From assembly GCA_028865095.1 (NCBI GenBank), contig JAGWLA010000001.1:137806-201805 (forward strand): a stretch of DNA of 64,000 nt, read 5' to 3'. Within the stretch, counting starts at the first letter, position 1. Each line of letters opens with the position of its first letter. This DNA comes from Patescibacteria group bacterium. Lineage in GTDB: Bacteria > Patescibacteriota > Minisyncoccia > Phycocordibacterales > PALSA-1337. Of this stretch, positions 3,841 to 39,470 are shown one piece after another. Both the position numbers and the translations under genes were made by a program. The notes under the pieces were generated by a model. The model saw only the letters and a list, made by a program, of their open reading frames with translations, did not search any database and had not been told where the DNA came from.

Positions 3841-6249
3841 ATGTCCCATCAGATCAAGGCGGCGAAGCTCTCGGTCATCGTCCCCGTCTTCAACGAGAGA
3901 GGGACGATCAGGGAAGTGATAGCGAAAGTCATCTCTGCCCGACTGCCCGATGGGTGGACGAGAGAAGTGATCGTTGTCGATGATGCCTCTCACGACGGCA
4001 CCCAAAATGTCCTTAAAGGCCTCGTTGGATGCACCATATCCTATTCGCGATTCAATGGCGGGAAAGGGGCGGCGCTTAAAGAAGGATTAAGGATCGCGAC
4101 AGGGGATTATATCCTCATACAAGACGCCGATCTAGAATATGACCCGGATGATTATGAAAAGCTGCTCCAGCCTATCATCGATGGCAGGGCAGACGCGGTC
4201 TTCGGGTCGCGCACTCTCGGAAAGAACAACAAGGTTCCCTTGAAGAGGATATATTTCTATGGAGGCTTGCTCATCAATAAGATATTTAATGCCCTTTTTG
4301 GGACGAGGGTGAGCGACGTGGCGACGTGCTACAAAATCTTCTCTCGCGGGCATGCCGACGAGATCTTGAAACTGCCGGCAAACGACTTCGTGTTCGATGT
4401 CGTCGAGCTGTCTTATTATCTGACAAGTCATACGCATATCGTTGAGGTTCCGATCCGTTATGAGCCGCGCGGAGGGACAGAAGGGAAGAAGATGGGTTGG
4501 CGCCATGGTTGGCGTTGTTTTAGGAGGATGCTGTCTCTCTATATCGATCAGAGGAGCTGGATGCCGGCCTTCCTCTCTTTTGCCGTCTTCTTTGCCGTCT
4601 TCTTTGCAGTGTATTTCTCGGTGAGCACGCTCTCGAGCGGCGACGATCACTTCTTCCATTTCAGGTTCGCCCAAGAGATGCTGTCCCATGGCTTTTTCGG
4701 ATCTTTCCAAGATTTCAAATCGATCTATTTTTCCCAGATGGCGCATGGCAATTCATATTTCATGTATTACAATTTCATCTTTTATGTCGTCGCCATCCCG
4801 TTCACCTTTATCACCCCTCTGTATCTAGGGATAAAGCTTTATGCCGTCTTGATTGCGGCAGCTGCGTTCACCTTGCTCTACTGGTGCCTTAAGAGGTTCG
4901 ACATACGCTATCCGTTCGTATGGACTCTCGTCATCCTCTCGATCACTAGTACGGCATCGCTCTGGAGATTTTTTCTCTCAAGGCCGTATGCGCTCGCCCC
5001 ATCCATCCTTCTGCTCCTTCTTTATTTCCTGTATCGCAAAAACCATGTCGGCGTCGCGATCGTGAGCTTTGCGTATCTTTTCTGGCACAGCTCGACGTTC
5101 TTTATGCCGATATGCGTTGCCGTTGCATATTACATAATCGAAAAGTTCTATCGGAACAAGGGCGACTGGAAGAACCTGGCGTGTGCAATCGGGGGGACAA
5201 TGGCAGCGATCGGCGCCACTTACCTCGTTTCAGGCGGATTTCTCATCTTCATATGGCAGACGCTCGTGAAGATCTATTGGCAGACGATCTTGGGGCATGC
5301 CGTCAAAATATCAGAGGGGGGAGAGCTGTATCCGATCGATTTCTTCAATTTCATCCAGACAAACGCTCTTATCTTTGCCGCATTCGTGACAGCTTTGTCG
5401 GTAGATATATTCAGCTACGTGGCCTATAAGACGGGGCGGTCCCCTTCAGACGATTATTTTGCCGATGCGCCAGCGCCTCGGCGTCACCTTCAATCAACGG
5501 TGCTATTCCTGACGGCGGGGTTCTTCCTGGGGACGGTGGCGGTCAGCGGCAGATTCGGAGATTATTTCACGTTCTTTGCCGCGCTCTATATAGCATTATC
5601 GTTCGATTATGCTCGCAGGCTCGTCGTCATATCCGGCGGGTCGCTGATCCGGCAGAGCCTCGGCACCGGGCTTGCGATCGTTCTCGCCTATCTTTTTTTG
5701 AGCAATATGCTGTTTCTTCAACAAAGGATCGCCTACGGCCAATCGCCGCTCGAATTCTATCAAGTCGGATCGTGGCTGAAAGAGAATTCGAAGCCTGGCG
5801 ACATAGTGTTCGAGGCTAATTGGAGCTGGTTCCCGCAGCTGTACTATTGGAGCCCGGATGATTATTACAGCGCCGGTCTTGAGCCAAGGTTCATGTATGA
5901 TTACAACCCAGCGCTTTATTGGGAATCAGTTCACATCGCGCAAGATGGTTATGTGTGCGCCCAGCAGGAATGCCCTGACCTCGAAGCCGCCCGTTCCAAA
6001 GCTTTATCAGGAGCGACGACTACTTTGGAGTGGGCCAAGCGCCAAGGTGATGCCATAGCGTCCGCGCTACGGAATGACTTCCACGCCTCGTATATAGTTT
6101 CTTCGAAGGATTATCGCTTTTTCGATTACATTCTTTCCAATAACTCCCATTTCAAACTGGGCCTGTATAATGACCAATTCGGCAATGAGGTATTCACAGT
6201 GTCTACCAGTTCGGTCATAGCTATGCCTGATGCAAGGAACAGGAAATGA
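3841..6249 (+). CDS. Fused glycosyltransferase: N-terminal GT2 (polyprenol-phosphate sugar synthase, GtrB/Dpm1-like) plus C-terminal polytopic GT-C-like membrane transferase
   Basis: 802 aa. The N-terminal ~230 aa carry GT2 motifs ([22 protein letters not shown]). The remaining ~570 aa have more than 10 predicted TM helices, typical of GT-C/ArnT/PMT-like enzymes. Confidence 0.65.
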
Positions 6250-18188: not shown

Positions 18189-20027
18189 ATGGAGATATTC
18201 TCTGTTCAGTCCACGCCCCCTTCGTTCCTGCCGGTCTCTGATATTCAACCAAATCCGACTACAAATAAGTCTGCAAGATTGATCAACATCTTTAGATTTT
18301 TGCTCATCCTATCCTTGATAGGCTGGGGGTTCTTCGTCTTTGAAAATATATTCGGATTGGCGATCTTAACCACACAAGGTACAACTGGTCTAGTGTATTG
18401 GGCAGCTACATGGAATCCATATCTTACTAAACTAGTCATCTCTTTCTCCGTTTTGACTCTGGTGATTCTTTTAATGAATCTCGTTTTTTGGAAAAAGATT
18501 GTTGCTCCAAAGCTCTCGCTTCTTGTCTGGTTAAACCCATTGTTAATAGTCATTGGCGCTTATATCATTGGCACACAATATCCTTCACTTGCTACAAATC
18601 CTTCCACATATCTTGTATTTGATATATTTCAAGCCTGTGTGGCTGTAGTCTCAATCTTATTTCAGTCTTTTATCTATTACAGATTTGAAAGAGCCCGTGC
18701 AGGTATATTTGGTGGCAGTACAACATTCTCTAAAGTGTTTATCTCAACACTCCTAATTTTAACCGCCTGTGTCAGCGCATGGTCATATATCTACGCCCAA
18801 TCATTGAAATCTACAAGCTCAAGCGGATTGACTGGTATATCTACAGCACTGATTGATATATCAACCTGGCAGTCATATTCAAATACAGAATTAGGTTATA
18901 GCATTAAATATCCTCCGCTCAATGATTCTTATACACAGAACCAACCGACAGAGGTCCTAATATACGGAGATCCTCAAGAGGTCGGTTTTCCATATACGCT
19001 TCCTAATGCTAGTGGAGATATTGCTCTGGATAAATACAATCCAAGTGACTGCAAGCAGATATATTCAAAAGTGAATCCTTCTATGAAAACGATCTCGATA
19101 GGGCCAACATCGTATTACTATAGCGATACAGGTCCCGAAGGTGCAATAACAGTTGGAGGATTCCTGTTCGAAGCTGGTTATTTGACTGCACAGAACAGCT
19201 TCTCTGATGGCAGTTGCCTGTTATTGAAATTGACAGCTGGAACCCAGGCTTCGTCGTCAACTCTAGGAGTCATGACAAAGCAACAGATGCAATCACAGAT
19301 CGATATTGCATATGCAATGCTCAGTAGCCTATCGCTGTCGCCGACAACGACAACAGCGATAATCAAGCCTCTCGGTGATTATGCTACCTCGGCCAATATC
19401 GTTCCCATAGGAGCCAATCGTATATACCGTGATACCCATTCATATGTAGGCGTATGTGCCAATTCGGCGGGTCTTTTCAAGACTGTCACCGATCAAACGC
19501 CAGTATGTCGTGACAGTACGAACGCATATATAGATTATGTCTTTATAAGCAATTCCTACGGCTATATCTGCGTGGATACATCCGGGACATCCGTGCTCAT
19601 AAAACAAGCTCCGACGGGGTTCTCGTGCAATCTCGTAAAGACTGCCGTACCGGAGGCTGCTAATTCGAGCGTTTCAGTCCCAAGTAATTCACCGGCTCTA
19701 AGTGTAGACCAAATATCGGCGTGGCAAGGTCAACTCGACTGCGGAAGTCAGACCTACCCTGATTCTCAGACAGCCTCAAATGCATTGGCCAATTCCGTTT
19801 GCTTTGATACAAGATTTAAGATGTGCAAACCGGCAACTATTACCGGTATCGTAGGAGACAAGATAAGCACCAATGCAGTGATTGGCCCGCAAGGGAATCA
19901 ATGCGAAGTCACTCTTGACTTCTCGGGTCCTTCAGGGAGCGCCGGTTGGACATGCCTCTTCGACCCGACGCAACCATTTTCCACTTCAAACGATTCGGTA
20001 GGAAAATACTGTAAACCAAGTAATTAG
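18189..20027 (+). CDS. Hypothetical polytopic membrane protein with large Cys-containing extracytoplasmic domain; AT-rich, likely horizontally acquired
   Basis: 612 aa. About 5 N-terminal TM helices followed by a ~400-aa Ser/Thr/Cys-rich domain. GC content is much lower than the flanks. Confidence 0.5.
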   Translation: MEIFSVQSTPPSFLPVSDIQPNPTTNKSARLINIFRFLLILSLIGWGFFVFENIFGLAILTTQGTTGLVYWAATWNPYLTKLVISFSVLTLVILLMNLVFWKKIVAPKLSLLVWLNPLLIVIGAYIIGTQYPSLATNPSTYLVFDIFQACVAVVSILFQSFIYYRFERARAGIFGGSTTFSKVFISTLLILTACVSAWSYIYAQSLKSTSSSGLTGISTALIDISTWQSYSNTELGYSIKYPPLNDSYTQNQPTEVLIYGDPQEVGFPYTLPNASGDIALDKYNPSDCKQIYSKVNPSMKTISIGPTSYYYSDTGPEGAITVGGFLFEAGYLTAQNSFSDGSCLLLKLTAGTQASSSTLGVMTKQQMQSQIDIAYAMLSSLSLSPTTTTAIIKPLGDYATSANIVPIGANRIYRDTHSYVGVCANSAGLFKTVTDQTPVCRDSTNAYIDYVFISNSYGYICVDTSGTSVLIKQAPTGFSCNLVKTAVPEAANSSVSVPSNSPALSVDQISAWQGQLDCGSQTYPDSQTASNALANSVCFDTRFKMCKPATITGIVGDKISTNAVIGPQGNQCEVTLDFSGPSGSAGWTCLFDPTQPFSTSNDSVGKYCKPSN

Positions 20028-20190
20028 TTATTTCTCATATGATGATTTGTGTTTCGAGCCTCCGCTCTTACATCGTACGGGATTCGTACCATGAAAATGA
20101 ACGGTGCCAGGTCTAACCTGCGGTCATGTGTTTTTCGCCTCTTACGCAGAAAACGGCGGCTCTAAAACTATGGTTCCAAAACGGTCAGGC

Positions 20191-20265
20191 TGGTTGCGGG
20201 GGCCGGAATCGAACCGGCAATTTTCAGGTTATGAGCCTGACGGGTTACCGTTACCCTACCCCGCG
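20191..20265 (-). tRNA. Initiator tRNA-fMet (CAT)
   Basis: CGCGGGG...CCCCGCA-A with a C1:A72 mismatch, anticodon loop CTCATAA, T-arm GCCGGTTCGATTCCGGC, and an encoded CCA. Confidence 0.8.
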
Positions 20266-20338
20266 ATGGTGTCTCCCCATTTTGCCATATTGGAACCCAT
20301 TGTGCAAGCTCTGCTTTTATGCGATATTACCTCGTGAC

Positions 20339-20412
20339 GCCGGTGTAGCTCAGGCAGTTAGAGCGAGGGACTCATAAGCCCTAGGTCGCAGGTGCAAGTC
20401 CTGCCGCCGGCA
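20339..20412 (+). tRNA. tRNA with CAT anticodon (elongator Met or Ile2-lysidine type)
   Basis: Acceptor GCCGGTG/CGCCGGC and anticodon loop CTCATAA. It resembles Ile2 (LAU) tRNAs. Confidence 0.75.
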
Positions 20413-20461
20413 CACTTTGTTTTTCGCCGGATTTCTGGTACATTGATGTCCGTGCCTGTTT

Positions 20462-20535
20462 GCGCCCGTAGTTCAGCTGGCTAGAACGCTCCCCTGTCAC
20501 GGGAGAGGTCGTGGGTTCGAGTCCCATCGGGCGCG
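20462..20535 (+). tRNA. tRNA-Asp (GTC)
   Basis: Cloverleaf with anticodon loop CTGTCAC and T-loop TTCGAGT. Confidence 0.85.
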
Positions 20536-20552
20536 CCGTTCGTTGCAATATG

Positions 20553-20624
20553 CCGATGTAGCTCAGCTGGTAGAGCATTCCCATGGTAAGGGAAAGGTCC
20601 CCGGTTCAATCCCGGGCATCGGCT
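20553..20624 (+). tRNA. tRNA-Thr (GGT)
   Basis: Acceptor GCCGATG/CATCGGC and anticodon loop ATGGTAA. Confidence 0.8.
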
Positions 20625-20655
20625 CCGTATCGTCGCAGCCGCGGGAGCGGCGCAT

Positions 20656-20728
20656 GCCACCTTAGCTCAGTTGGTAGAGCATCCCCTTCGTAAGGGGAGG
20701 GTCCCCGGTTCAAGCCCGGGAGGTGGCT
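20656..20728 (+). tRNA. tRNA-Thr (CGT)
   Basis: Acceptor GCCACCT/AGGTGGC and anticodon loop TTCGTAA. Confidence 0.8.
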
Positions 20729-20747
20729 CAAGGGAAGGGGGAAAGCA

Positions 20748-20824
20748 TGAAGTATTAAGTATTAAGTATGAAGTATAAAGTATGAAGTATAAAGTATGAA
20801 GTATGGAGTATGAGGTATAAAGCA
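20748..20824. repeat. Tandem heptanucleotide repeat (TRAAGTA)x11 encoding overlapping mini-ORFs
   Basis: The sequence is tgaagta ttaagta ttaagta tgaagta taaagta..., giving stop codons in all three frames and six ATG-initiated 3-5 codon mini-ORFs. Confidence 0.8.
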
Positions 20825-21735
20825 TGATGCCGACGGACAAAACTGACATACAGAAGAAGATCGCCGAGCTCGAAGCCGCCATGGGCGCCGCCGATTTTTG
20901 GTCGGACAAAGCCCGCGCCCAAGCGTCCATCAGGGAGCTCCAGGAGCTCAAAGCCGCCCTCGAAGGGGTCGGCAAATACGACAAGGGCGACGCCATCCTC
21001 TCTATCCTCTCGGGCGCCGGAGGCGACGATGCCGAGGACTTCTCGGCCATGCTGCTCAAGATGTACCGGAAATACTGCGAAGGGAAGGGGTGGGGATGGG
21101 ACGTCGTCCATTCCAACGAGAACGACCACGGCGGCTATCGCAACGTGACCGTCGAAGTGTCGGGGAAGGGCGGCGGGCCCGGCGGCCTCGGCCCGTACGG
21201 CACCCTCAAGAACGAGTCGGGCGTCCACCGCCTCGTCCGCATATCGCCGTTCAATTCCAACCAGAAGCGCCAGACCTCGTTCTCCATGGTCGAGGTCATC
21301 CCGAGGTTCGAGACCGCGTCCGAGAAGGACATCGTCATACCCGATTCCGACATCGAAGTCTCGATCGCCAAATCGGGCGGCCCCGGCGGCCAGAACGTCA
21401 ACAAGCGCATGACCGCCGTGCGCCTCCTCCATACGCCGACCGGCATATCCGTGCACGTGACCTCCGAGCGCTCGCTGGAGCAGAACCGCCAGAAAGCCTT
21501 CGACATCATCCGGGCCAAGCTCTGGAAGCACCAGGAAGACGAGCGCAAGGCCAAGGAGAAGGGCATGCAGATATCCTCCACCACCTCCATCGAATGGGGC
21601 AACCAGATCCGCTCGTATGTCCTCCATCCGTATAAGATGGTCAAAGACCACCGCACCGACGTCGAGAGTTCCCAGCCCGACAAGGTCCTCGAAGGCGAGC
21701 TGGACGAGTTCATCGAGGCCGAGAAAGCCCTCTAA
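20824..21735 (+). CDS. prfB: Peptide chain release factor 2 (N-terminally short, no programmed frameshift detected)
   Basis: GGQ motif ([11 protein letters not shown]) and the RF2-specific SPF tripeptide (RISPFNS). It aligns to E. coli RF2 from about residue 38. Confidence 0.85.
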
Positions 21736-21871
21736 GCGCAGCAGGGATATGGCCTGAGGGACACTTCGCAGGAATTTGCCAGCAGGAAAATTCCGAGACG
21801 TAGCGCGAGCCCAGCAGGGCTCGGCGCGCGTCCCTCAGGGCATATCACTGCTGTGCTATAATGGGATTCAC

Positions 21872-22563: not shown

Positions 22564-23520
22564 ATGATATTCACCACCTTTAAAAGAGTCGTGCGCACCG
22601 GTTTCGTCAATTTCTGGCGGAACGGCTTCCTGTCCTTCGCGGCCATCGTGGTCATCACCCTGTCCCTCATCTCCGTCGGCTGCCTCATATTCGCGGGAGC
22701 CATCGGCGGCTCGCTCATCGCCCAGGTGAAGGACCAGGTGGACATCAACGTATATTTCACCCTTTCCGCCCAGGAAGCGGACATCTTGGCTTTCCAGAAG
22801 GAGATCGACGCCCTGCCCGAAGTGGCTTCGACCACCTATGTCTCCCAGGACCAGGCCCTGGCTTCGTTCCAGCAGAGATGGCAGGATAACGCCCTCATCA
22901 TGCAAGGCCTCCAGGAGCTCGGCAGCAATCCTTTCCCGGCGGCGCTGACCATCAAAGCCAAGGAGCCGAGCCAGTACGGCGGCATCGCCGACTTCCTGAC
23001 GAGCAAAGCCCCGACCGATTCGACGGGCGCGCCCATCATCGACAAGGTGAACTACCAGGAGAACCAGCTCATCATCGACCGCTTGAGCCGCATCATCCCG
23101 ACGGTCGAGCAGGGCGGGGCGGCCATCGCCCTCCTTCTCGCCCTGGCGGCGGTCGTGGTGGTCTTCAACACCATCCGCCTCATCACGTATTCCGTCCGCG
23201 ACGAGATCGCCGTCATGAAGCTCGTCGGCGCGTCCAATGTCTATGTCCGCGGCCCGCTGGTGGTGTCGGGGATCATGTACGGCATCGTCTCCGCCGTCAT
23301 CGCCCTGGCCCTCATGGCGGCCCTGTCGTACTGGAGCGACACCCTCATACTGCGCCTGGCCGGCGTGGACGTGGCCTCCAATTTCTCCTTCGCCGTGAAC
23401 ATCTTCTCGGACTATTTCTCCCGCAACTTCGCCCAGCTCTTCGCGGCCATCATGGGCGCCGGCATCCTGCTCGGGGGCCTCTCCAGCTACATCGCCGCCC
23501 GCCGGTACCTGCGGGTATAG
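22564..23520 (+). CDS. ftsX: Cell-division permease FtsX
   Basis: 318 aa, N-terminal TM, large periplasmic loop and 3 C-terminal TM helices. It lies downstream of ftsE. Confidence 0.85.
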   Translation: MIFTTFKRVVRTGFVNFWRNGFLSFAAIVVITLSLISVGCLIFAGAIGGSLIAQVKDQVDINVYFTLSAQEADILAFQKEIDALPEVASTTYVSQDQALASFQQRWQDNALIMQGLQELGSNPFPAALTIKAKEPSQYGGIADFLTSKAPTDSTGAPIIDKVNYQENQLIIDRLSRIIPTVEQGGAAIALLLALAAVVVVFNTIRLITYSVRDEIAVMKLVGASNVYVRGPLVVSGIMYGIVSAVIALALMAALSYWSDTLILRLAGVDVASNFSFAVNIFSDYFSRNFAQLFAAIMGAGILLGGLSSYIAARRYLRV

Positions 23521-26915: not shown

Positions 26916-26989
26916 TGCGGGATCGTCTAATGGTAGGACAACGGACTCTGAATCCGTTTATCTTGGTTCGAATCCAAGTCCCGCAGCCA
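26916..26989 (+). tRNA. tRNA-Gln (CTG) with encoded CCA; integration target of the island
   Basis: Acceptor TGCGGGA/TCCCGCA, anticodon stem ACGGA/TCCGT, loop CTCTGAA, T-loop TTCGAAT. Confidence 0.85.
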
Positions 26990-27023
26990 ACACATGCACC
27001 CTGACCGGAGAGGGTCAATGAAC
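26985..27023. repeat. attL: 39-bp direct repeat overlapping the tRNA-Gln 3' end
   Basis: agccaacAcatgcaccctgaccggagaGggtcaatgaac; 37 of 39 positions match the copy at 51449-51487. Confidence 0.8.
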
Positions 27024-27069
27024 CGATTTTGGTTCTAGACCAAGACCTGTTGATGTGTAAACTATAATC

Positions 27070-27870
27070 ATGACTATCATATGGAAAGATTTTTCATCGT
27101 GGGATGGTATTGTCCGTACCACTATCACACCCGCTAGTGTTTTAGAAGTTATATCAAAAATGAAGCGAGCAGGGGAAGGTGGCTATGTCCAAGATGATCC
27201 CGGATGGCTTCATCCCCTAGAAAACCATCTCGGATATCCAATCAAAGATGCAATAAATAATCTGGCGAATGCGTTAGAAAGAGAAAATATCCGTGTATAT
27301 CATGGTTGCCGTCCGATAGACATTAGCTCATACCTGTCAAAAGGTTTGAAAGTTCATAGACGTAATGAATTGATCAGTGAGCTCAGGAAGATGGTCATGT
27401 CTGATACAAGATTGTCTCGATTTGATTTAGATGGACGAATCGGTGAGGTCAAAAAATCATACGATAATGGCAAACTTTTCCTCGTGTTTGATGATCGATA
27501 CATGATTGAATATGCAGGGCACTATCTGATATATGGTGGCGAATACATAGCAAATGTGCTCAGAGATCATTTGGAAGTTTTGCTCGAAAAAGGGACACCG
27601 ACGATAATCACTGTTGATTTGCCTGGCCGTATGATATCTAGACCAATCCTTGAAGGATTTGCTAAAGATCTTCTTACAGAGTGGACAAGACAAGTAATAA
27701 ATGAGCCAAAGTCAGTCCACATGAGAGACTGTGGTGTTGAGCTTGAATCTGATCTGGATCCGAAATATATAGTTGGTCATGAACATCCGCTGGTTATAAA
27801 AGACCCATGGAATTCTCGTCAGGAATATATTGTTGAGAATAATTGTTGTAGGACTACTCCTCAAGCATAA
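27070..27870 (+). CDS. Hypothetical protein (island-borne)
   Basis: 266 aa, no recognisable motifs. It overlaps the recombinase gene convergently by 17 nt. Confidence 0.4.
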   Translation: MTIIWKDFSSWDGIVRTTITPASVLEVISKMKRAGEGGYVQDDPGWLHPLENHLGYPIKDAINNLANALERENIRVYHGCRPIDISSYLSKGLKVHRRNELISELRKMVMSDTRLSRFDLDGRIGEVKKSYDNGKLFLVFDDRYMIEYAGHYLIYGGEYIANVLRDHLEVLLEKGTPTIITVDLPGRMISRPILEGFAKDLLTEWTRQVINEPKSVHMRDCGVELESDLDPKYIVGHEHPLVIKDPWNSRQEYIVENNCCRTTPQA

Positions 27871-29173
27871 TTTCCTTGTCTTTCATTACGATCTTGCTCC
27901 TGAGCGACTCAAGTATGTGTCGTTTCTCCTCAACCGTTCCTTCTCGTAGGATATACTTCACATACTCTTTCGGATCGGCATTCCTCGACCTCAGCTTCTG
28001 TCCTGCTCCTAGTACACTCTCTTGAAACTTCTGGAATCTATCTATCTCCGCCTTGAGCTTCTTCTTGATACCGATCTTGTCGAGATTGATGCCATCGATC
28101 ATGTTCTCTAGCTGTTTTACGAGTTCCTCCTCGCGCAGGGAAGCATTCTTGCATTCTTTGTCATTGAATCTGGTGCAGGTGTAGTAGACATACCTATTTG
28201 TACCGCCTTTGGCCAGCTTCTTGAACTTCTCGTCGGCGGTGATGCCGGAATTGCAGTAGCCACATCGCATGAGCTTGGTGAAGGCGAACTCTTTCTTTTC
28301 GCCAGTCCTATCTTTGTTGATATCGAGCTTTTGCTGAACCTTGTCGAAGAGCTCCTTGGATATGAGCGGTTCATGCCGGCCCTGATACCATGATTCGCTG
28401 CCTTTCGGGTATTCGAATCTGCCATAGTAGAAGTGATTGCGCAGGATGATGTATATATTGCTCAATGTGAGTAACTTGCCACGCTGCACCCTGAAGTCTA
28501 TCTCCTTGAGCCAGTAGAAGAGCTTTCGCCCGCTCCAGCCGTCATCTGCAACCTTCTCGAATATTTTCTTCACGATCGGTGCTCGCTTGGGATCGGTGTA
28601 TATGATCCCTTTTTCACCAACGAGCTTGCTGTTCAGGTATCCTGTCGGTGCCGGTGCAGGCCAGAGCCCCATCTCACAGCGGATCTTTAGCCCACGCTTC
28701 ACATTAACGCTCTTGTTGTCGTTCTCCAGCTTAGCTTGGCTTCCCAATATCATGAGGAGGAACTTCTCATTGGGGTTATTGGTAAATCGCTGACTGAATG
28801 TCCTGATCTCTTTCAGTTTCCCTTGATCCATGAGGTCGACGATGGATCCTAAGTCTCCGGCGTTGCGGCTTACTCTATCTGGATGCCAGACGAGGATTGC
28901 ATTAAATTTTCCATCCTTGATATCGGCGACCATCTCATTGAACTTCGGTCTTTGCCCGGTATCTTTGGCTGAATGCGCTTCACGCTTGGTATCGACTACG
29001 TTCAAGCCTTCTCGTGTCGCGAGAGCGAGCATCTCGTTTATCTGCGCATCTATCGACAATGCTTGGCGTTCATCTGATTCCGATGATTTTCTGGCATAGA
29101 GGCAATATGACAGGGTAGTTGCGATCTGAGGCTGCCTACCGCCTAGATCTACCCGTGAGGTTGCTTGTTGCAT
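27854..29173 (-). CDS. Large serine recombinase (resolvase/invertase catalytic domain + recombinase domain + zinc ribbon)
   Basis: N-terminus YCLYARKSSESDE with the catalytic Ser, block VWHPDRVSRN, and a C-terminal Cys cluster CGYC...CTRFNDKEC. Confidence 0.85.
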   Translation of the reverse strand: MQQATSRVDLGGRQPQIATTLSYCLYARKSSESDERQALSIDAQINEMLALATREGLNVVDTKREAHSAKDTGQRPKFNEMVADIKDGKFNAILVWHPDRVSRNAGDLGSIVDLMDQGKLKEIRTFSQRFTNNPNEKFLLMILGSQAKLENDNKSVNVKRGLKIRCEMGLWPAPAPTGYLNSKLVGEKGIIYTDPKRAPIVKKIFEKVADDGWSGRKLFYWLKEIDFRVQRGKLLTLSNIYIILRNHFYYGRFEYPKGSESWYQGRHEPLISKELFDKVQQKLDINKDRTGEKKEFAFTKLMRCGYCNSGITADEKFKKLAKGGTNRYVYYTCTRFNDKECKNASLREEELVKQLENMIDGINLDKIGIKKKLKAEIDRFQKFQESVLGAGQKLRSRNADPKEYVKYILREGTVEEKRHILESLRSKIVMKDKEIMLEE

Positions 29174-29287
29174 GATATGTGCCTGTTAGCTGGCATACAT
29201 CAATCAATGCCGCCACCGGTCCTAAGAGTCCAGGAGGGGTAAGTTGGTAACAATTTTTCCAAAACGGCTTTATTTCTAGCCATTTCT

Positions 29288-30838
29288 ATGGTAGAATTTT
29301 TCTTAACTATGGCCACCCTAAACTGGATCGGTAAAGAAGCTGTTGCAAACCACGACAAAGAGGTTCCTTTTAAGTTGTTAGAGAAAGTTCCAAGTGCATC
29401 AGTTGGAAAGGAATCAAAAAATCTCGTAATTCATGGCGATAACCTTGAAGCACTGAAGGCCCTTATGCCTTTTTATCAAGGAAAGATAAAGTGTATCTAT
29501 ATTGATCCGCCATACAATACCGGAAACGAGGGATGGGTATATAACGATAAGGTAAATTCTCCCAAGATACGTGAATGGTTGTCTCAGGTTGTAAAATCAG
29601 ATGACCTGACTAAGCACGATAAATGGTTGTGCATGATGCAACCAAGACTCAAATTGCTTAAGGAGCTACTTTCTGATGATGGTTTTATATTTGTAAGTAT
29701 TGACGATCATGAACAGCAGTATTTATCCCATTTAATGAACGAAATGTTTGGTGAGGGAAATTTCGTTGCTAATTTCATATGGAATCACAGGAAGTCAAGC
29801 CAGAATGATATTGATATATCACTGTCGCATAATTACACCTTTTGTTATGCACGTAACAGATCAAAGTTTAAATTGAATCCTCTTGAAATTGATGGCAGCA
29901 AATTTTCTAACCCAGACAATGATCCAAGAGGTGACTGGGTAGCAGACCCTATGGATGCACCTGCTATTCGAGAAAATTTAATGTATCCAATTACCAACCC
30001 CAAAACAAAAAAAGTCTATTTGCCGCCACCTGGTAGGCATTGGAGGTTTTCAAAGGAGAAGTTCGAGCAAGCTATAAAGGATAATCGTATTTTATTTGGA
30101 AAGACAGGTAATTCTAAACCTCAATATAAGCGGTTTAAAAGCGAAGCGGTACTAAAAGGTACTAATGTTTTTACGATATGGGATGACGTAGGAACTGCAA
30201 CTGAAGGGACACAAGAGCTCATGGATCTTTTTGATGGCAAAAAGGTTTTTGATACACCAAAACCCACTTCATTTATCAAGAAAATTCTCAAATTGGCCTC
30301 AGGAAAAGATTCGATTATCCTAGATTCCTTTGCAGGATCAGGAACTACAGCACATGCTATTTTAAGTCTAAATAGTGAAGAGAAGGGTTCAAATAGGAAG
30401 TTTATTCTTGTCGAAATGGAAGATAAAGTTGCCAGAGATATTACAGCAGCACGCGTTGAACGAGTTATAAAAAAGTATAATTTTGAAGATGGTTTTGAGT
30501 ATTGTGAACTCGCTAAGCCTCTATTCGATAAGGCGGGACAAATAAATGAATCGTGCTCATATGAAGAGCTTGCTTCTTATATCTACTTCACTGAAACACA
30601 AACGAATATCGATAAGAAGGCGATTAAAAACCCATTCATTGGTGAAAGTCACGGTATATCGTATTACCTTGTCTATACTGGCAAAGGAAAAAATGAGATA
30701 AACCGCTCCTCGCTTTCTAAGTTGAAAATAGTTGGTCAAGCAGTTATATACGCGGATCGGTGTCTTGTCGATGAAGATGAACTTAAGGAAAAGGGAATTA
30801 CATTCAAACAGATCCCGTACGAGATAAAAATATACTAA
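29288..30838 (+). CDS. Type III restriction-modification methyltransferase (Mod, N6-adenine)
   Basis: DPPYNTG catalytic motif; AdoMet motif FAGSGTT downstream (beta-class motif order). Confidence 0.8.
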   Translation: MVEFFLTMATLNWIGKEAVANHDKEVPFKLLEKVPSASVGKESKNLVIHGDNLEALKALMPFYQGKIKCIYIDPPYNTGNEGWVYNDKVNSPKIREWLSQVVKSDDLTKHDKWLCMMQPRLKLLKELLSDDGFIFVSIDDHEQQYLSHLMNEMFGEGNFVANFIWNHRKSSQNDIDISLSHNYTFCYARNRSKFKLNPLEIDGSKFSNPDNDPRGDWVADPMDAPAIRENLMYPITNPKTKKVYLPPPGRHWRFSKEKFEQAIKDNRILFGKTGNSKPQYKRFKSEAVLKGTNVFTIWDDVGTATEGTQELMDLFDGKKVFDTPKPTSFIKKILKLASGKDSIILDSFAGSGTTAHAILSLNSEEKGSNRKFILVEMEDKVARDITAARVERVIKKYNFEDGFEYCELAKPLFDKAGQINESCSYEELASYIYFTETQTNIDKKAIKNPFIGESHGISYYLVYTGKGKNEINRSSLSKLKIVGQAVIYADRCLVDEDELKEKGITFKQIPYEIKIY

Positions 30839-30843
30839 CTACC

Positions 30844-33120
30844 ATGAATCTTAAACGTTATCAAACAAACGCGATTGAAACGCTGGACAAATTCTTGGAA
30901 CTTTCCAAGAAGATGAAACCTCGCCATGCTTTTAATGAGATTACTGAACAAGTTTACAATCATGAGTGGTTCAATGATGTCCCATTTGTCTGTATCCGTA
31001 TTCCTACTGGTGGCGGTAAGACGCTCGTAGGATGTAAGTCTGTGGAGCGGATAATGAGCACTACGCTCCAGAATAAAATGGATACAGGTATAGTGATGTG
31101 GTTTGTACCATCCGATTCAATAAAAAAGCAAACGCTTGAGAAGTTTAGAGATCCGAAAGATTGGCATTATCAAATGCTTCATGAATCTTTTGGTGCAAAG
31201 ATTCAGATTCTTTCAAACGAGGAAGCTCTTACTATTTCACTGGAAAACGTAAGAGATAATTTGTGCATAATTGTAGCGAGCCTTGATGCGTTTCGTAAGG
31301 ACGCTTCCATACAGAAGAAATATAAGGTTTATAAGGAGAACGGTTCCTTGATGGGACACTTTGAGAATCTGAAGAATGATACCAATCTCGAAAAGGATTC
31401 AGATAATACGGTCATAAATTCTCTTGCAAACGTAATCCGCAAAAACAACCCACTCATCGTTATTGATGAAGGACATCATACTCAAACGGATCTCTCTGTA
31501 CGTTTTTTGTCTGATCTGAAGCCAGCTTTTATCATCGAATTTACCGCCACTCCGCGTGACGGTAGTAATGTTCTTGTTAAGACTAGTGCTTCTGAATTAA
31601 AAGTCGAGGAAATGGTGAAGATTCCTATTGTCTTAGAAAGTCGTTCGCAGTGGGAACAGGTTGTTTTAGACGGTATCACGAAGCGTAATGAGCTTGAGAA
31701 GAATGCTAAAAAACTAAAAGGAGAATATGTTCGCCCGATCGCATTATTGCAGGCTCAACCTGTTAGTAAGACGAGATTAACTGTTACTGTTGAAGCCTTG
31801 AAGGAAATGCTCCTTAAGCACAAAATTCCTGAAGAGCAAATAAAGATAAAAATATCAGGATTAGATGAACTTGAGGGGATAGATCTTTTCGATAAGAAAT
31901 GCGAGGTTCGTTATATTTTGACTGTAAATGCACTGGCAGAAGGTTGGGATTGTTCTTTTGCTTACGTGCTTATATCTGTCGCAAATCTAGGAGCGAAAAT
32001 AGCGGTTGAACAGATCATCGGTAGAGTTATTCGTATGCCGCATGCACGACGAAAATCTGACGAATCTCTCAATAGGAGTTATGTGTTTGCTTCTGCCGCC
32101 AAATTTGATGAAGCCGCTTCAAAAGTTATCAAAGGGCTCGAAGATAATGGATACAGCAGGTCCGATTTTGTGCAAGCGAGTGGAGAAAAAGATTATAACG
32201 ATCCACTAGAAGCTAAAAAAGCTGTTAAAAAAGATCTGAAGGTTCCAATAATGGCCATTGGTAAGGATAAACTCGCATTCGAGGATTTACTCAGTGAAAA
32301 TTTTGAGTTGGCGAAGGAGGATCCGGATTTCGATTTTAAAATTCACTATGATCTCGATGGGCAGGCGACTATAGATATCACTGAAGATGACGAATGGCTA
32401 CAGGGTAAACAGTTGTCATTGTCTTTTCAGTATTTGGAAGGTGAACATACAGTAGAAGAGTTGGCATCTTGGCTTGACAAAAAGTTACGTTTTCCAATGG
32501 TGAACCCTGCCGACAAACTTTCATTTATCGAAAAGGCTATACAAATACAGATCAAGAAGCATAAGCGCTCACTTCCTGAACTTTCAGTTAATCGCTACTT
32601 GTTAGCTGATCGTCTTGGTACAGTTATTACTGATCGTCTTGAGTCTCACGCCAGAAAAAACTTTGATAAGCTCATTTCATCCAAGAAAATATCGACCAGT
32701 GTTTTTGATGCTTATCCTGATACCATAGCTCTCAAGTCACCTCTAGCTAAAGTCTTCAATAAGAATCTATACGAGAGAATTGATGCTGTTAATGGTGAAG
32801 AGAGGGGGTTCGTCGAACGTATGGATCTTGGTACTCTAGACAATATCGAATTTTGGGTCCGCAATCGCGAAAAGGTCGATCCGTTTTACATACAAGGTTG
32901 GAGGAGGGGTAAATTCTATCCGGACTTTGTAGCAGTAACTAAAAAGGGAAATATTGTCGCACTTGAGTGGAAGGGGGAGGATCGTATAAGTAATGAGGAT
33001 ACTGCGTATAAGGTCGAAATCGCAAAAGAATGGGAAAAGTTAGGTAAAGGGAAACTCCACTTTTTCCTTGTACATAATGGAAACGCGGAAGAAGTTCTCA
33101 ATGCTATAAAAAATCTGTAG
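30844..33120 (+). CDS. Type III restriction endonuclease Res subunit (SF2 helicase + nuclease)
   Basis: Walker A TGGGKT, DEAH-like VIDEGHH, helicase motifs. It lies 6 nt after mod. Confidence 0.85.
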   Translation: MNLKRYQTNAIETLDKFLELSKKMKPRHAFNEITEQVYNHEWFNDVPFVCIRIPTGGGKTLVGCKSVERIMSTTLQNKMDTGIVMWFVPSDSIKKQTLEKFRDPKDWHYQMLHESFGAKIQILSNEEALTISLENVRDNLCIIVASLDAFRKDASIQKKYKVYKENGSLMGHFENLKNDTNLEKDSDNTVINSLANVIRKNNPLIVIDEGHHTQTDLSVRFLSDLKPAFIIEFTATPRDGSNVLVKTSASELKVEEMVKIPIVLESRSQWEQVVLDGITKRNELEKNAKKLKGEYVRPIALLQAQPVSKTRLTVTVEALKEMLLKHKIPEEQIKIKISGLDELEGIDLFDKKCEVRYILTVNALAEGWDCSFAYVLISVANLGAKIAVEQIIGRVIRMPHARRKSDESLNRSYVFASAAKFDEAASKVIKGLEDNGYSRSDFVQASGEKDYNDPLEAKKAVKKDLKVPIMAIGKDKLAFEDLLSENFELAKEDPDFDFKIHYDLDGQATIDITEDDEWLQGKQLSLSFQYLEGEHTVEELASWLDKKLRFPMVNPADKLSFIEKAIQIQIKKHKRSLPELSVNRYLLADRLGTVITDRLESHARKNFDKLISSKKISTSVFDAYPDTIALKSPLAKVFNKNLYERIDAVNGEERGFVERMDLGTLDNIEFWVRNREKVDPFYIQGWRRGKFYPDFVAVTKKGNIVALEWKGEDRISNEDTAYKVEIAKEWEKLGKGKLHFFLVHNGNAEEVLNAIKNL

Positions 33121-33122
33121 TT

Positions 33123-33917
33123 ATGAATCCAAGAGGGTGGACTAAAACAGAATTAGAAGAATGGCTCAAGAACCCTCTTACGCAGGAAAGAAAAGGTTTT
33201 GATCTTAAGGCAATAATTCCTCCACACGATGCGGGCAAGAATGATCTCAAAAAAGATTTTTGTGGTTTTGCAAACGGAACGGGCGGTTTTCTCTTTTTCG
33301 GTATCAAAGACGACAAGTCAATAATTGGAATAAATGAGGACAATAATTTTACGACTAGGATAAGTGAAATTGTCACGAAACACATTTTTCCTACAACAAT
33401 ATTATGGGATCTCTGTGCATGTATAAAAGTCGATAGTGGGAAATGTGTTTATGTTATTGAGATTATTGAGAGTCCTTATTGGCAAAAACCTCACGTGTTT
33501 TTCCGCGAAAGCGACGGTCTTTTCATACCCTTGAGGGAGAATGGAAATAAAAGAAACATTACGGATGGTTCTGAACTGAGAAGAATATGTTTAAAGACAG
33601 ACAATTATTATCCAGAATACAATACACACGTCCTTAATATTCTCAGAGAATTGAAAAACAAACCGAGACCATTTTTTAGTCTAACTGATGCTGTTATTAT
33701 TCAAGGGTATAAATCGTTCTTACGTTCCCAGTCTGAGACACAATACGGACAAATTCTTATCGAAATTGAGAACATAGAAATGGCTGTGGCCGAATTGAAC
33801 AAGAAGCATTTTTCAGGAGTTGCGGACGGCAATCCAATTGTTTCTGCAGATCAAGATGGTAAACTCGGCAAGTTGGTCGATGATTTTGTTTCAAACTTTG
33901 GCAGACAAATAATATGA
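33123..33917 (+). CDS. AlbA_2 / Schlafen-like divergent-AAA domain protein
   Basis: ERKGFDLK...DFCGFANGTGGFLFFGIKDD matches the AlbA_2 core (E..EFK...AFANt.GG.L..GV.D). Its start lies 3 nt after the res stop. Confidence 0.55.
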   Translation: MNPRGWTKTELEEWLKNPLTQERKGFDLKAIIPPHDAGKNDLKKDFCGFANGTGGFLFFGIKDDKSIIGINEDNNFTTRISEIVTKHIFPTTILWDLCACIKVDSGKCVYVIEIIESPYWQKPHVFFRESDGLFIPLRENGNKRNITDGSELRRICLKTDNYYPEYNTHVLNILRELKNKPRPFFSLTDAVIIQGYKSFLRSQSETQYGQILIEIENIEMAVAELNKKHFSGVADGNPIVSADQDGKLGKLVDDFVSNFGRQII

Positions 33918-36900
33918 AAAAGATGACAAGTGGACAAGCGAACATTGCAGGGATAAATGCACAGGTATGGGCAGCTATGTCCTTGTTCTTGCAATTTCTG
34001 CGTGACCCGAGATTTATACAAATTCATCTTGAAGCTCCAGGTTTTCAAGATTTTAATCTTCTATTTAATGATGGTAAGAAAATCATCTGTGAATCCAAAG
34101 ATAGAAAACAGCCCTTTAACTACGCTGATCTTAAAAAGATACTGAAAAATGTCGCTGGTAATCAATCCCTCTCAAAGGACGATGAAATTTTAATTGTTTG
34201 CCGATCTGCAAACAAGAATCTTGTGAGTGATGTAAGACATGGACGTTATTTCGAAGAGATCAAAAATAAATTTAAAAAGAAGGGCTATTCTGATGCACAG
34301 GTGAGCTTACTGCAAAATGTAAAATTCTGGGTAATTCCACCTTCGTTTAATGAGCAGATTATCTATTCTTTATTTACTGATCTCGTAAGCTTTTGGCTAC
34401 CGGCAAGTGATATCGAGAAAATTGTCGACAATATTTTGGTGCAAAAAATCTATAAAGGATCGGCAAAGGGAGCTACCTATAGCAGAGTTGATATTTTAAA
34501 AGAAATAAATCAGCTTGCTGATGATGCAAAAAACAATAGTGTTTATTATAACGATGGTTTGCAAAAAAGAGAGGATCAGTTTTCCAATCTTGAGAAAGCT
34601 CTCAGTAATCCTAAAGATGGAACCTGGAATATACCAAAGGAACTCTCTGCATTTTCCACAGATTATGAAAGGTTAAGATTTGCGACAAATCGGCTAACCA
34701 ACCAAAAAGACATTCTTAATCTTTCGGAGTGGGACCCTCTATGGCAGTTAAACAAGGTGTATTTTTTCACTTTTGGTATTTTTACTATTTTTGAAAATAA
34801 TCTACATACAAAGGAGAACAGGGATTATGTAATTGGGCATATAAAAAAATATGTTAAACAGATTAGAGGTTTTTATCAGGCAGATTTTTTCAATGTAAAT
34901 GTGGTGAAATTAGTCGGTAAGATCATCGATGGCCCAGATGGGGGTCAATATCTTATTCGAGCCTACGATATTATTAAAGACCTCATCACTTCAAACGAAA
35001 AGGAATTTTTCTACATGAAGGAGAATGGCTATGACCACGGACAATGGGAAAAAGGTGAAATATGCAAGCTCTTGCAAAAAATCTATCATCATAAAGATGC
35101 CGATGAAGCCTTAAAGCAAAAAATCTTTAATCTCTCAATTACCGCCTTTAATCTTATAGAAGACGAAGGAGAGTTTAGCCATCATACACCCCCTGAAATA
35201 TTTGCGATTTTGGCAAGTTGGCTTCAAGAAGATTTCATTAATCGTTTCAAAAAAATAGTAAAGATTCTTGCAGATCAATACGATAAATACTACAAACAAT
35301 TCGGTAAGAAGATGGCTTTCGCCGGATGGGAGCATATGGGTGGCGGCATATCATTCAGTGGCGGTTATCATGCTTCGGACCGACATTTTATGGGAATTCT
35401 TGCACCTGCGATAAGGAAATATTATGACCTCAATCCCACTGAGGGTTGGAAGCTCATCAAAGAAAAGTGTATCAGTAAGACAAATCAGGTAAGTAAAACA
35501 CGTCCGGATTTTCTTAATAGGGCAGTTTACGAGATTGTCTTAGAAAGATATGCCCAGGACAACAAGACCATTGCTGCTGAAGCATTCTCCATATTGAGTG
35601 AATTGATCCTTTCTCGGAAAGGTATTCCGCATAAGTCTGATCTCATTTACCAGACGGTACGCGGGATGGCAATTTCAGATGATAAAAAATGGAAACTCGT
35701 TGAGTTAACTGCAAAAAAATACGGAGTACCAGTTAATCCATTTGCCGAGCAAATTATTGCGGGTCTCGCTAAGAAAGGACATGTGGAAGCCAGAGCAGAA
35801 CTTAAACGATGGTTTGCTGAACCAAAGTATTATCATCGATTCATGTTCGGCGAAGACGCAGTTTCCACAATTAAAGCATTGCTTGATAGCGATCTCAATT
35901 TTGCTGTTGAGTTATTCCAAGCGTTGCTTGATAGTTATTATTTTAAGAATGGTAAAAGTGACAGTTTAAGTCCTTTTACGGTTGCCGCCTTACTCCAGGT
36001 TATCTTAAGCAAGGACTATGCTAAAGGTCTCGGTCTCTTGAGATTTCTAGAGTCACAAGAGGTATTGACCAAAGATCAGCAATCAATTTATTGTTTCAGT
36101 TTGTTTAACAATCACGGCAATGATGATTCAGACGACATCGAATTGCTGATGAAAGTATATAAAGATGTAATTGATCCTTTATTAATCAAGTTTGATGACA
36201 CTGAAAAAATTGTTAAGAGATTTCCCAATGATGGCGCGCGAGCTGCTCTCGTACAGTTTGCTGTTCGTCTGGCGGTAAAAAAGAAAATGACAGAGGCTCT
36301 TAGGATTATCAAATCATTTGTTAGTGATCCTGATCCATATTTAACCGATAAGGACCCAAATGATCCTAAGAATGAATATAACGAGCAAAAAAGGATTGAA
36401 GAAGGAAAAGAACCGAACAATATTACCTCTGTACGCGGTTGGTGTGGTTGGGCATTGATGAAATGCTCGGTCCTAGAAGGTCGTGAAAAAATCCCAGAAA
36501 TAATTTCTTTAGCTTCAAAACTTGCTGAGGACAGAAATTATTACGCGGTTCATATGGCTACATTTGCACTTGCCCAGTTGGCAAAAAATAGATTGACGGT
36601 CTTACCGGATAACAAAGAGGTACTTTTTTTCAACGACGATAAGACAAAGGCACTAAAAATGGCAAAACAAATTGAGGGCATTGCCTTTAAACTACTCGAG
36701 CAACTTCTTTCGTGGCCCGAAAAGGTTCAAATAGCCATGTCAAAAAGTGTTCTACACGTTTTCGATCCTATACGATCACTCAATGAACAAGATGCACTTC
36801 ATCTGATTGAAGACCTTGCCAAACTTCCAAAAGAAACAGTAGCTGAATCCGCACCGTTGTTCATATATTTTGCTGAATTTCGAAAGGATGCCTACCCAGA

Positions 36901-37546
36901 TTGGAAATTTAGTGCCCCTGGCCTTTATGATGATCTGGGTCCAGATAAATATAATGAGAAGAAATTCAAGAAAATTCTTATTGAGACTGTGCACCGGCTC
37001 CAAAAAAATGACCCGAATAGTTGCTTCAGATTTGCTGCTTCCGTAGAACATCTGACACGAGAGCCTGGAGATGGGGGTATTAAAAAATATACCGATCTTG
37101 CTTTGGAATATTTTGATTTTCTTACGGACGCTTATGGTCATAACATATACAATCTTATCTACATGACCATTGAGGCAAAACTTCAAAAACCTGATGATTA
37201 TTTAGACCAATGGTTCAACCTTTTGATAAAGTGCTTCAAAATTGAGGGGGAATTTTATCGAAAAGAAATAAAAGCAGGTAATGCGGCAAAGGTTTATTGG
37301 TACCCAACTTTGTATCACTCAAGGATAGTAGAGTTAGTTAACGAACGATTTGATAAAGAAAAGTTTATGGAGATTGCGAAGATATTCTTCAATTTTCCTA
37401 AAGAGCTCGATTTAAATGAGTCAGATGGACTAATATCTCTTCTTAGGGAATTTGCAAAGACTGATCCAGAGGCAAAGACCATTCTCCAAAACTTGCTTAA
37501 AAAGAGCCCAAGCAAGTATTGGTATCTTAGGGATGAGTTGAAATAA
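33914..37546 (+). CDS. Large (1210 aa) uncharacterised protein: N-terminal Cap4/HamA(DUF4297)-like nuclease motif plus about 1000 aa of alpha-helical (HEAT/ARM-like) repeats; candidate defence effector
   Basis: N-terminus SGQANIAGINAQVW...IHLEAPGFQDFNLL...IICESKDRK (G..A..G..AQ followed by an E/D...E-x-K triad). No Walker A. Low-complexity helical remainder. Start overlaps the upstream stop (ATGA). Confidence 0.45.
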   Translation: MKKMTSGQANIAGINAQVWAAMSLFLQFLRDPRFIQIHLEAPGFQDFNLLFNDGKKIICESKDRKQPFNYADLKKILKNVAGNQSLSKDDEILIVCRSANKNLVSDVRHGRYFEEIKNKFKKKGYSDAQVSLLQNVKFWVIPPSFNEQIIYSLFTDLVSFWLPASDIEKIVDNILVQKIYKGSAKGATYSRVDILKEINQLADDAKNNSVYYNDGLQKREDQFSNLEKALSNPKDGTWNIPKELSAFSTDYERLRFATNRLTNQKDILNLSEWDPLWQLNKVYFFTFGIFTIFENNLHTKENRDYVIGHIKKYVKQIRGFYQADFFNVNVVKLVGKIIDGPDGGQYLIRAYDIIKDLITSNEKEFFYMKENGYDHGQWEKGEICKLLQKIYHHKDADEALKQKIFNLSITAFNLIEDEGEFSHHTPPEIFAILASWLQEDFINRFKKIVKILADQYDKYYKQFGKKMAFAGWEHMGGGISFSGGYHASDRHFMGILAPAIRKYYDLNPTEGWKLIKEKCISKTNQVSKTRPDFLNRAVYEIVLERYAQDNKTIAAEAFSILSELILSRKGIPHKSDLIYQTVRGMAISDDKKWKLVELTAKKYGVPVNPFAEQIIAGLAKKGHVEARAELKRWFAEPKYYHRFMFGEDAVSTIKALLDSDLNFAVELFQALLDSYYFKNGKSDSLSPFTVAALLQVILSKDYAKGLGLLRFLESQEVLTKDQQSIYCFSLFNNHGNDDSDDIELLMKVYKDVIDPLLIKFDDTEKIVKRFPNDGARAALVQFAVRLAVKKKMTEALRIIKSFVSDPDPYLTDKDPNDPKNEYNEQKRIEEGKEPNNITSVRGWCGWALMKCSVLEGREKIPEIISLASKLAEDRNYYAVHMATFALAQLAKNRLTVLPDNKEVLFFNDDKTKALKMAKQIEGIAFKLLEQLLSWPEKVQIAMSKSVLHVFDPIRSLNEQDALHLIEDLAKLPKETVAESAPLFIYFAEFRKDAYPDWKFSAPGLYDDLGPDKYNEKKFKKILIETVHRLQKNDPNSCFRFAASVEHLTREPGDGGIKKYTDLALEYFDFLTDAYGHNIYNLIYMTIEAKLQKPDDYLDQWFNLLIKCFKIEGEFYRKEIKAGNAAKVYWYPTLYHSRIVELVNERFDKEKFMEIAKIFFNFPKELDLNESDGLISLLREFAKTDPEAKTILQNLLKKSPSKYWYLRDELK

Positions 37547-37560
37547 ATCTCAAATATAAT

Positions 37561-38214: not shown

Positions 38215-38339
38215 TTTGAAACCAGTATTCTAGATCATAAAAATTGATGCATTGTCATCTTAAACTCTTTTTGATACTCTAATATCACAACTGAATATGA
38301 GCAGCCTAAACCCTTTGACAAGGGCATGGCTCACAAGAC

Positions 38340-38386
38340 CCGATAAAGAATACTGAACCCCACGTTCAGCGACTCTTTATCGGGCC
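38340..38386. other. Long near-perfect hairpin in the 258-nt intergenic leader
   Basis: 11-bp arms cccgataaaga...tctttatcggg plus nested tgaac...gttca. Confidence 0.5.
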
Positions 38387-38472
38387 ATATCGGGAAACTG
38401 GTATGGGGCCGCAAGGCCTAAAGCTAGCGTGGGGCTTAGTGTATCTACACTTGTCCTCACGCCATGTAACCC

Positions 38473-39384: not shown

Positions 39385-39470
39385 CTCTATTTCAAACTGT
39401 TGGTAACTTCGCTTCGCAAGGCCTTGAATCCAAGCTAAGGTAGCACACATTACCCATTAACCACATAACT

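Follow-up and report, generated by a model that had tools for sequence, protein, structure and literature searches.

Heptameric simple sequence repeats (SSRs) are reported to be over-represented in the intergenic DNA of many bacteria, and DNA-polymerase slippage has been put forward as the reason for the excess (PMC4692102, citing Mrazek 2007). The G-rich intergenic heptamers of Xanthomonas (GGGAATC) and Nostoc vary in length and sequence between close relatives (PMC4692102), and the function of the 7-bp STRR repeats of cyanobacteria is not established (PMC2670836). The mechanism is understood in one case, the (ATCTTTC)n repeat that lies in the 5' untranslated region of hmw1A of Haemophilus influenzae and combines a long hairpin cut by RNase III with copy-number variation (PMC12721329). 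Here we describe an array of eleven heptamers directly upstream of prfB, the gene of release factor 2 (RF2), in a 64-kb stretch of contig JAGWLA010000001.1 (hereafter the window) from a Patescibacteria genome of the Paceibacteria/Parcubacteria type. The array shares with the bacterial heptanucleotide SSRs its period of 7, the tandem arrangement, the intergenic location, often between co-directional genes, and a unit and copy number that differ among close relatives. It differs in its host, a Patescibacteria genome, and from the G-rich heptamers of Xanthomonas and Nostoc in its unit, since the units of the window and of its clade are AT- and purine-rich and allow neither a G-quadruplex nor a hairpin. 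A literature search of limited coverage, and hence no proof of absence, found no description of heptamer repeats in Patescibacteria.

The array is located on the forward strand at positions 20747-20823, with the consensus ATGAAGT (or AAGTATG in another register). It is wholly non-coding and lies between the end of a tRNA-Thr(CGU) gene (20729) and the prfB start codon at 20824, a spacer of 94 nt that it fills except for a 17-nt G-rich head (AAGGGAAGGGGGAAAGC, 20730-20746). Tandem Repeats Finder (TRF) delimited it to 20743-20827 with period 7, 12.1 copies, 82% matches, 0% indels and a score of 107. It was the only one of the 28 TRF rows for the window with this period, and the next-best score was 58. 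A 20-nt pattern of the repeat had ten overlapping matches in the array, none elsewhere in the window and none in 100 shuffles; together with the TRF score this places the array far beyond chance occurrence. The original prediction had counted eleven heptamers from 20748 and called them a microsatellite. Both statements agree with our in-register listing and with TRF (period 7, no indels): in the register TRAAGTA, six copies are exact to the consensus and five carry one mismatch. In the ATG register, copies 1 to 6 read ATGAAGT, ATTAAGT, ATTAAGT, ATGAAGT, ATAAAGT and ATGAAGT, copies 7 to 11 read ATAAAGT, ATGAAGT, ATGGAGT, ATGAGGT and ATAAAGC, and a degenerate twelfth copy, ATGATGC (20824-20830), coincides with the start of prfB. 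A perfect 14-nt higher-order repeat, ATGAAGTATAAAGT, spans 20768-20802. The composition is A 0.45, G 0.25, T 0.29 and C 0.01.

Several short motifs within the spacer resemble translation or transcription signals. The head contains AAGGGGG (20735-20741), similar to a Shine-Dalgarno (SD) sequence and located 5 nt upstream of the first ATG of the array. Two further SD-like motifs, GGAG (20805-20808) and GAGG (20812-20815), arise from the array's only A-to-G variants, which fall in copies 9 and 10; they occupy 20805-20815 on the forward strand, and GAGG ends 8 nt before the prfB ATG, although a function of either motif would be putative. They are followed by TATAAA (20816-20821), a hexamer resembling a -10 element, 2 nt before the ATG at 20824 and 5 nt before a second ATG at 20827.

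Enumeration by script exactly reproduced the six short open reading frames (mini-ORFs), their stops and the final ATGA overlap that had been proposed for the array. On the forward strand these are MKY-TAA (mini-ORF 1, 20747-20758), MKYKV-TGA twice (mini-ORF 2, 20768-20785, and mini-ORF 3, 20782-20799), MKYGV-TGA (mini-ORF 4, 20796-20813), MEYEV-TAA (mini-ORF 5, 20803-20820) and MRYKA-TGA (mini-ORF 6, 20810-20827). The TGA of mini-ORF 6 (20825-20827) overlaps the ATG of prfB (20824-20826), and mini-ORFs 2, 3, 4 and 6 together with prfB form a chain of ATGA overlaps, 20768 to 20782, 20796, 20810 and 20824. A period of 7 with a unit that contains ATGA places each ATG in frame with a TGA 15 nt downstream, so that five-codon frames and an ATGA chain arise automatically. 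The mini-ORF pattern is an arithmetic consequence of unit sequence and period and does not constitute independent evidence for a function.

The prfB loci of relatives were compared in a set of 167, comprising 80 GTDB species representatives, 80 metagenome contigs and 7 loci of the closest homologues (designated below by L numbers). The heptamer array of the window with its mini-ORFs occurs in 0 of the 167 loci. The gene order prfB-ftsE-ftsX is kept in relatives. The closest relative, L081 (84% RF2 identity), carries a different heptamer, (AAAAATC)x3.4, in the same spacer, with no ATG and no mini-ORF; its spacer opens with AAGGAAG, related to AAGGGGG in the window. Presence, unit and copy number of the array are thus not conserved between relatives, which corresponds to a rapid turnover, and this lack of conservation of repeat and mini-ORFs is the outcome that the original prediction had itself named as refuting it.

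Synteny of tRNA-Thr(CGU) and prfB is widespread among the related loci. A tRNA-Thr on the same strand lies within 200 nt upstream of prfB in 49 of the 149 usable loci, and in 32 of these 49 a gap of 0-11 nt separates its end from the start codon. In close relatives that have a tRNA-Thr upstream (78-83% RF2 identity), this gap measures 1-10 nt. An alignment with the six closest relatives placed an insertion only in the window and in L081, the other junctions being 1-10 nt long. By this comparison the ancestral tRNA-prfB junction is tight. In many Paceibacteria the 3' end of tRNA-Thr(CGU) abuts or overlaps the prfB start codon, as in GGGAGGTGGCTC directly followed by ATG. The gap is 0 in L011, L025, L027, L076, L093, L095, L104 and L116, and 1-11 nt in a further 24 loci. 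Where the tRNA abuts, the 3' strand of its acceptor stem, GGAGGTG, can also be read as a perfect SD sequence, placed 5-6 nt ahead of the ATG. Processing of the tRNA 3' end at such junctions would leave an essentially leaderless prfB mRNA, comparable to mitochondrial tRNA punctuation.

Heptamer arrays with other units were found at many junctions of the related loci. Among the arrays with at least 4 copies that TRF reported in 747 kb of related loci, 31 of 44 had period 7. A period-neutral detector (fixed 21-nt window, at least 17 self-matches at lag p, shorter periods excluded) was applied to the 110 kb of non-coding DNA of the 167 loci; it recorded 26 arrays at period 7, 0-5 at each of the other periods from 4 to 15, and 0 in shuffled sequence, while a stricter detector gave 3 arrays. 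The global autocorrelation of the intergenic DNA had weak bumps at lags 7, 14 and 21. Among the intergenic tandem repeats of these Patescibacteria loci, period-7 arrays predominate. The 39 arrays of the clade are located between co-directional genes, for example prfB and ftsE or ftsE and ftsX. Their units, among them AATTTTA, TTAAAGA, AAGCTAA and TAGGGTC, are mostly AT-rich and unrelated to one another. In spacers longer than 40 nt, arrays were present in 10 of 40 ftsE-ftsX and 10 of 76 prfB-ftsE junctions, in shorter spacers in 0 of 128. Examples are L098 (2348-2390 and 2410-2444), L123 (3306-3361) and L158 (3131-3161). In L004, (AAGTATT)x4.7 at 4755-4795 between ftsE and ftsX has the unit of copies 2-3 of the window. 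A second array of L004, (TATACTG)x4.9 at 4819-4855, follows after 23 nt and is roughly its reverse complement; the two could pair into a long hairpin. The equivalent junctions of L134 and L136 differ in array structure. Most arrays either start at the stop codon of the gene before them or come within 14 nt of the start codon that follows. With array lengths of 28-43 nt in the clade, the 80 nt of the window is the longest; it is the largest instance of a general tendency and not a device specific to prfB. In its copies, its non-coding site, its turnover and the period-7 excess of related loci, the array is a heptanucleotide SSR.

The gene downstream of the array departs from the canonical prfB. 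UGA is decoded by RF2 only, and the programmed +1 frameshift of prfB acts as a homeostatic feedback. The window gene (20824-21735, forward strand) encodes a short RF2 of 303 aa with the Pfam domains PCRF and RF-1 and the SPF and GGQ motifs. The protein is identical to P0001 of a metagenome-assembled genome listed at NCBI as 'Patescibacteria group bacterium', its best homologues are all from Patescibacteria, and its protein cluster holds one member from one contig. Like the frameshift system, consisting of CUU UGA C and an upstream SD, the locus combines prfB with UGA codons, and its short RF2 begins at the frameshift-equivalent position; it differs in that ORF0, CTTTGA and a slippery P-site codon are all lacking. 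CTTTGA is absent from 20500-21200, and the statement of the original prediction that the frameshift site is missing is borne out. A hidden ORF0 or frameshift was rejected on the same ground and because the homologues share one start point: the 120 best homologues (284-338 aa) begin in common at M..DKEKIQ.KI.ELE. The same script detected an in-frame CTTTGAC in the distant loci L150, L154, L161 and L162 (41-45% identity) and thus finds the motif when it is present; there it immediately precedes the point at which the short RF2s start. Residue 10 of the window protein aligns to residue 30 of a solved canonical RF2, part of domain 1 is absent, and the RF2s of the clade, about 293-305 aa long, have no counterpart to roughly the first 20 residues of the canonical protein. 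The short, frameshift-free RF2 is clade-wide and starts where the +1-frame segment of canonical prfB starts; ORF0 was apparently lost altogether and not joined to the gene in frame. Many prfB genes have lost the frameshift motif, and its loss is correlated with a high usage of TGA (PMC12421855). In the window TGA is the commonest stop codon (23 of 56 ORFs, 41%).

Taken together, the array is probably a lineage-specific heptanucleotide microsatellite that now serves as spacer and leader of prfB and has no dedicated regulatory function. It would have expanded inside the ancestrally tight tRNA-Thr(CGU)-prfB junction, most likely by replication slippage, with the start-codon region as its apparent seed, since the degenerate twelfth copy is the prfB ATG. 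Upstream of the junction four tRNA genes are co-directional with prfB (ARAGORN and Rfam, all on the forward strand): tRNA-Met(CAT) at 20339-20413, tRNA-Asp(GTC) at 20462-20537, tRNA-Thr(GGT) at 20552-20626 and tRNA-Thr(CGT) at 20656-20729. About 10 nt before tRNA-Met, on the forward strand at 20320-20328, lies TGCGATATT, a candidate extended -10 promoter of the TGnTAnnnT type that precedes many genes of the window. No terminator-like site was found in 20000-21000, so none separates the tRNAs from prfB; a consensus scan made no forward-strand promoter call in the array; and the abutting tRNA of relatives leaves no room for a promoter. For these reasons prfB is likely co-transcribed with the tRNA cluster from the TGCGATATT element. 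Processing of the tRNA 3' end would then make the 5' end of the prfB mRNA, leaving a leader of about 94 nt. This leader is nearly free of C and predicted to be unstructured, with a minimum free energy of -18.5 kcal/mol against -15.9 +/- 2.7 for shuffles (z = -0.96) and an almost unpaired centroid. The GGAG and GAGG copies, the latter 8 nt before the ATG, are a plausible SD-like site that would serve an AUG no longer 5'-terminal. The slippage origin, the co-transcription and the use of the SD-like site are steps that we infer from the sequence, as we do the absence of a dedicated regulatory function.

Four points weigh against this interpretation. None of the 39 arrays is longer than that of the window, and none comes close to its six ATGs, where only 10 of 30 clade arrays have any on the sense strand. 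An SD-like AAGGGGG followed by four successive ATGA overlaps into the gene of a UGA-reading factor is a striking coincidence. Both of the closest genomes have a heptamer array at the junction, which could reflect selection for a spacer and not neutral slippage. Lastly, the A-to-G variants could have formed GGAG and GAGG by chance.

On another reading, period-7 arrays in Patescibacteria would be a functional class, namely unstructured intercistronic pads kept by selection; with stops in all three frames, they would reset ribosomes and leave the following start codon exposed in SD-poor genomes. The location of most arrays at the upstream stop codon or at most 14 nt before the next start agrees with such a role, and stops in all three frames occur on the sense strand of 19 of 30 arrays as against 11 of 30 on the antisense strand. 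STRR repeats have also been suggested to confer translational coupling (PMC2670836). However, the strand bias is modest, nearness to gene ends is expected in short spacers, and the arrays are sporadic, at about 8-9% of the examined junctions and absent from the tight junctions that form the majority. Periods of 4, 5 or 8 would serve equally and were not seen, which points to a mutational bias. We regard a selected class of pads as unlikely.

Similarly unlikely is that the array carries a promoter of prfB itself. Its repeated TATAAA/TAAAGT hexamers, similar to -10 elements, would uncouple prfB from the tRNAs, possibly with a near-leaderless mRNA from the ATG at 20827. Such a promoter would fit the window, in which at least 11 of 56 ORFs have a TAnnnT hexamer 6-7 nt ahead of the start codon (about 1 in the control), and it would fit the relatives with longer spacers, since L047, L026, L079, L052 and L126 have TATACT or TATAAT 6-9 nt before the ATG. 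The TATAAA at 20816-20821 is indeed present, but it is without the conserved final T, a TG extension or a -35 element, and its distance to the two ATGs is only 2 or 5 nt instead of 6-7 nt. The consensus scan made no call here either, and across 30 arrays the TAnnnT hexamers have no bias between sense and antisense strand.

Less probable still is a contingency or tuning locus, in which the heptamer copy number would grade prfB expression as it does in hmw1A. Period and location in the 5' leader match the hmw1A repeat (PMC12721329), and in both hmw1A/hmw2A and the window a heptamer array of more than 10 copies directly precedes the gene. The perfect 35-nt stretch at 20768-20802 with its 14-nt periodicity stays prone to slippage, and the difference between L134 and L136 would suit a variable locus. 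The array as a whole is degenerate, though, with 82% matches. The hmw mechanism also depends on RNase III and on a long hairpin, one arm of which is G-rich, and it serves phase variation, whereas the leader in the window is predicted to be unstructured, contains 1% C and precedes a housekeeping gene; RF2 is an essential factor and no surface antigen.

We consider it very improbable that the mini-ORFs form an RF2-sensing relay, in which ribosomes would load at the SD-led mini-ORF 1 and reach prfB by way of four UGA/AUG overlaps, the availability of RF2 at UGA thus determining the translation of prfB. The ATGA chain from 20768 to 20824, the AAGGGGG 5 nt before the ATG at 20747, the exceptional length and ATG content of the array, the lack of the canonical frameshift and the prevalence of TGA stops in the window are in its favor. 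The ATGA overlaps joining mini-ORFs and prfB also recall translational coupling and the stalling of ribosomes on upstream open reading frames (uORFs) at stops read by RF2, as in tnaC, but the mini-ORFs of the window have no conserved peptide and no Rho or attenuator architecture. Against a relay stand the absence of conservation in the 167 loci together with the ATG-free array of the nearest relative, the arithmetic origin of the mini-ORFs, and the heptamer arrays at many unrelated junctions. The codons in the ribosomal P-site ahead of the UGAs, GUA and GCA, permit no +1 re-pairing. Slow termination at UGA would moreover stall ribosomes over the SD-like site and ATG of prfB and thereby cut reinitiation. 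By the logic of translational coupling, scarce RF2 would mean less reinitiation and so less RF2, a positive feedback opposite to the homeostatic frameshift. The termination-reinitiation autoregulation first suggested for this locus is therefore unsupported. If translated at all, the mini-ORFs would be ordinary weak uORFs or coupling relays and no RF2 sensor. A variant, that in a lineage without the prfB frameshift the expanded repeat was co-opted as an RF2-responsive leader in which RF2 at UGA gates its own synthesis, appears to us marginally less probable again; if true, RF2 autoregulation would have been achieved here by a categorically different route.

Further candidates were rejected. A structured RNA or riboswitch found no support, with no Rfam match for the leader at E <= 1 and a fold no better than shuffles. 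A -1 slippage from mini-ORF 6 into prfB would require an X XXY YYZ site, which U AUA AAG is not. An origin from a mobile element or phage, or an att duplication, was dismissed as the repeat has no exact match in IMG/VR and the tRNA 3' end has no duplicate in the window. Ring-shaped RNA-binding proteins recognize GAG/UAG at a period of 5-6 (TRAP) or UAG at a period of 7 (HutP). With no UAG in the array and a unit that relatives do not share, a sequence-specific binder of this kind is unlikely.

Downstream of prfB follow ftsE, with an ATG at 21872 and extending to 22552, and ftsX (22564-23520), both identified with Pfam and on the forward strand. An own promoter of ftsE is predicted in TGCTATAAT (21854-21862, forward strand), 9 nt before its ATG. 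Many genes of the window have such a -10 of the TGnTAnnnT type ending 6-7 nt before the start codon and no SD sequence, for instance those at 6693, 18189, 43746 (reverse strand), 45713, 52608, 57973 and 21872. This pattern suggests that leaderless mRNAs are widespread in the genome. Immediately upstream of the tRNA cluster lies an ORF of 612 aa (18189-20027) with a low GC content of 43% and no Pfam match, preceded by the leaderless-type GGTATAAT; judged by eye, its N-terminal part is hydrophobic and the rest rich in Ser and Thr. Two divergent tRNA-Met(CAT) genes, at 20191-20265 (reverse strand) and 20339-20413 (forward strand), are 73 nt apart, the forward copy heading the tRNA-prfB cluster. 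In the relative L081, the tRNA-Thr(GGU) at 1612-1877 is split in the anticodon loop, following ...ATGGTA, by 191 inserted nt (1649-1839), in which no Rfam family was found at E <= 0.01. A short way upstream, at about 1500-1610, the 5' half of the tRNA recurs in partial duplicate copies. The inserted stretch may be an uncharacterised tRNA intron or an insertion.

A low-GC block at about 27000-39400 (35-41%, against 60-67% on the upstream side) begins right after a tRNA-Gln (26916-26989). It encodes a large serine recombinase (27854-29173, reverse strand), an N6/N4 DNA methylase, a type III restriction Res helicase, a Schlafen/AlbA_2 protein, an unannotated protein of 1210 aa and a DUF5655 protein, and it resembles an integrated defence island. 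At 38303-38419 lies a LOOT RNA (Rfam RF03000, 80.5 bits).

The locus shows that the arithmetic of a microsatellite is by itself enough to place a striking series of UGA-terminated mini-ORFs ahead of the gene for RF2. As a single locus it carries little weight; of more interest are the dominance of period 7 across the clade, the prfB genes that abut a tRNA and the short RF2. Since prfB ancestrally abuts a tRNA, the 5' end of its mRNA is probably generated by tRNA processing. Together with the period-7 dominance, this arrangement bears on how translation starts in reduced, SD-poor genomes prone to leaderless mRNAs, and the arrays of the clade bear on the old question of why a period of 7 is favored among bacterial microsatellites.

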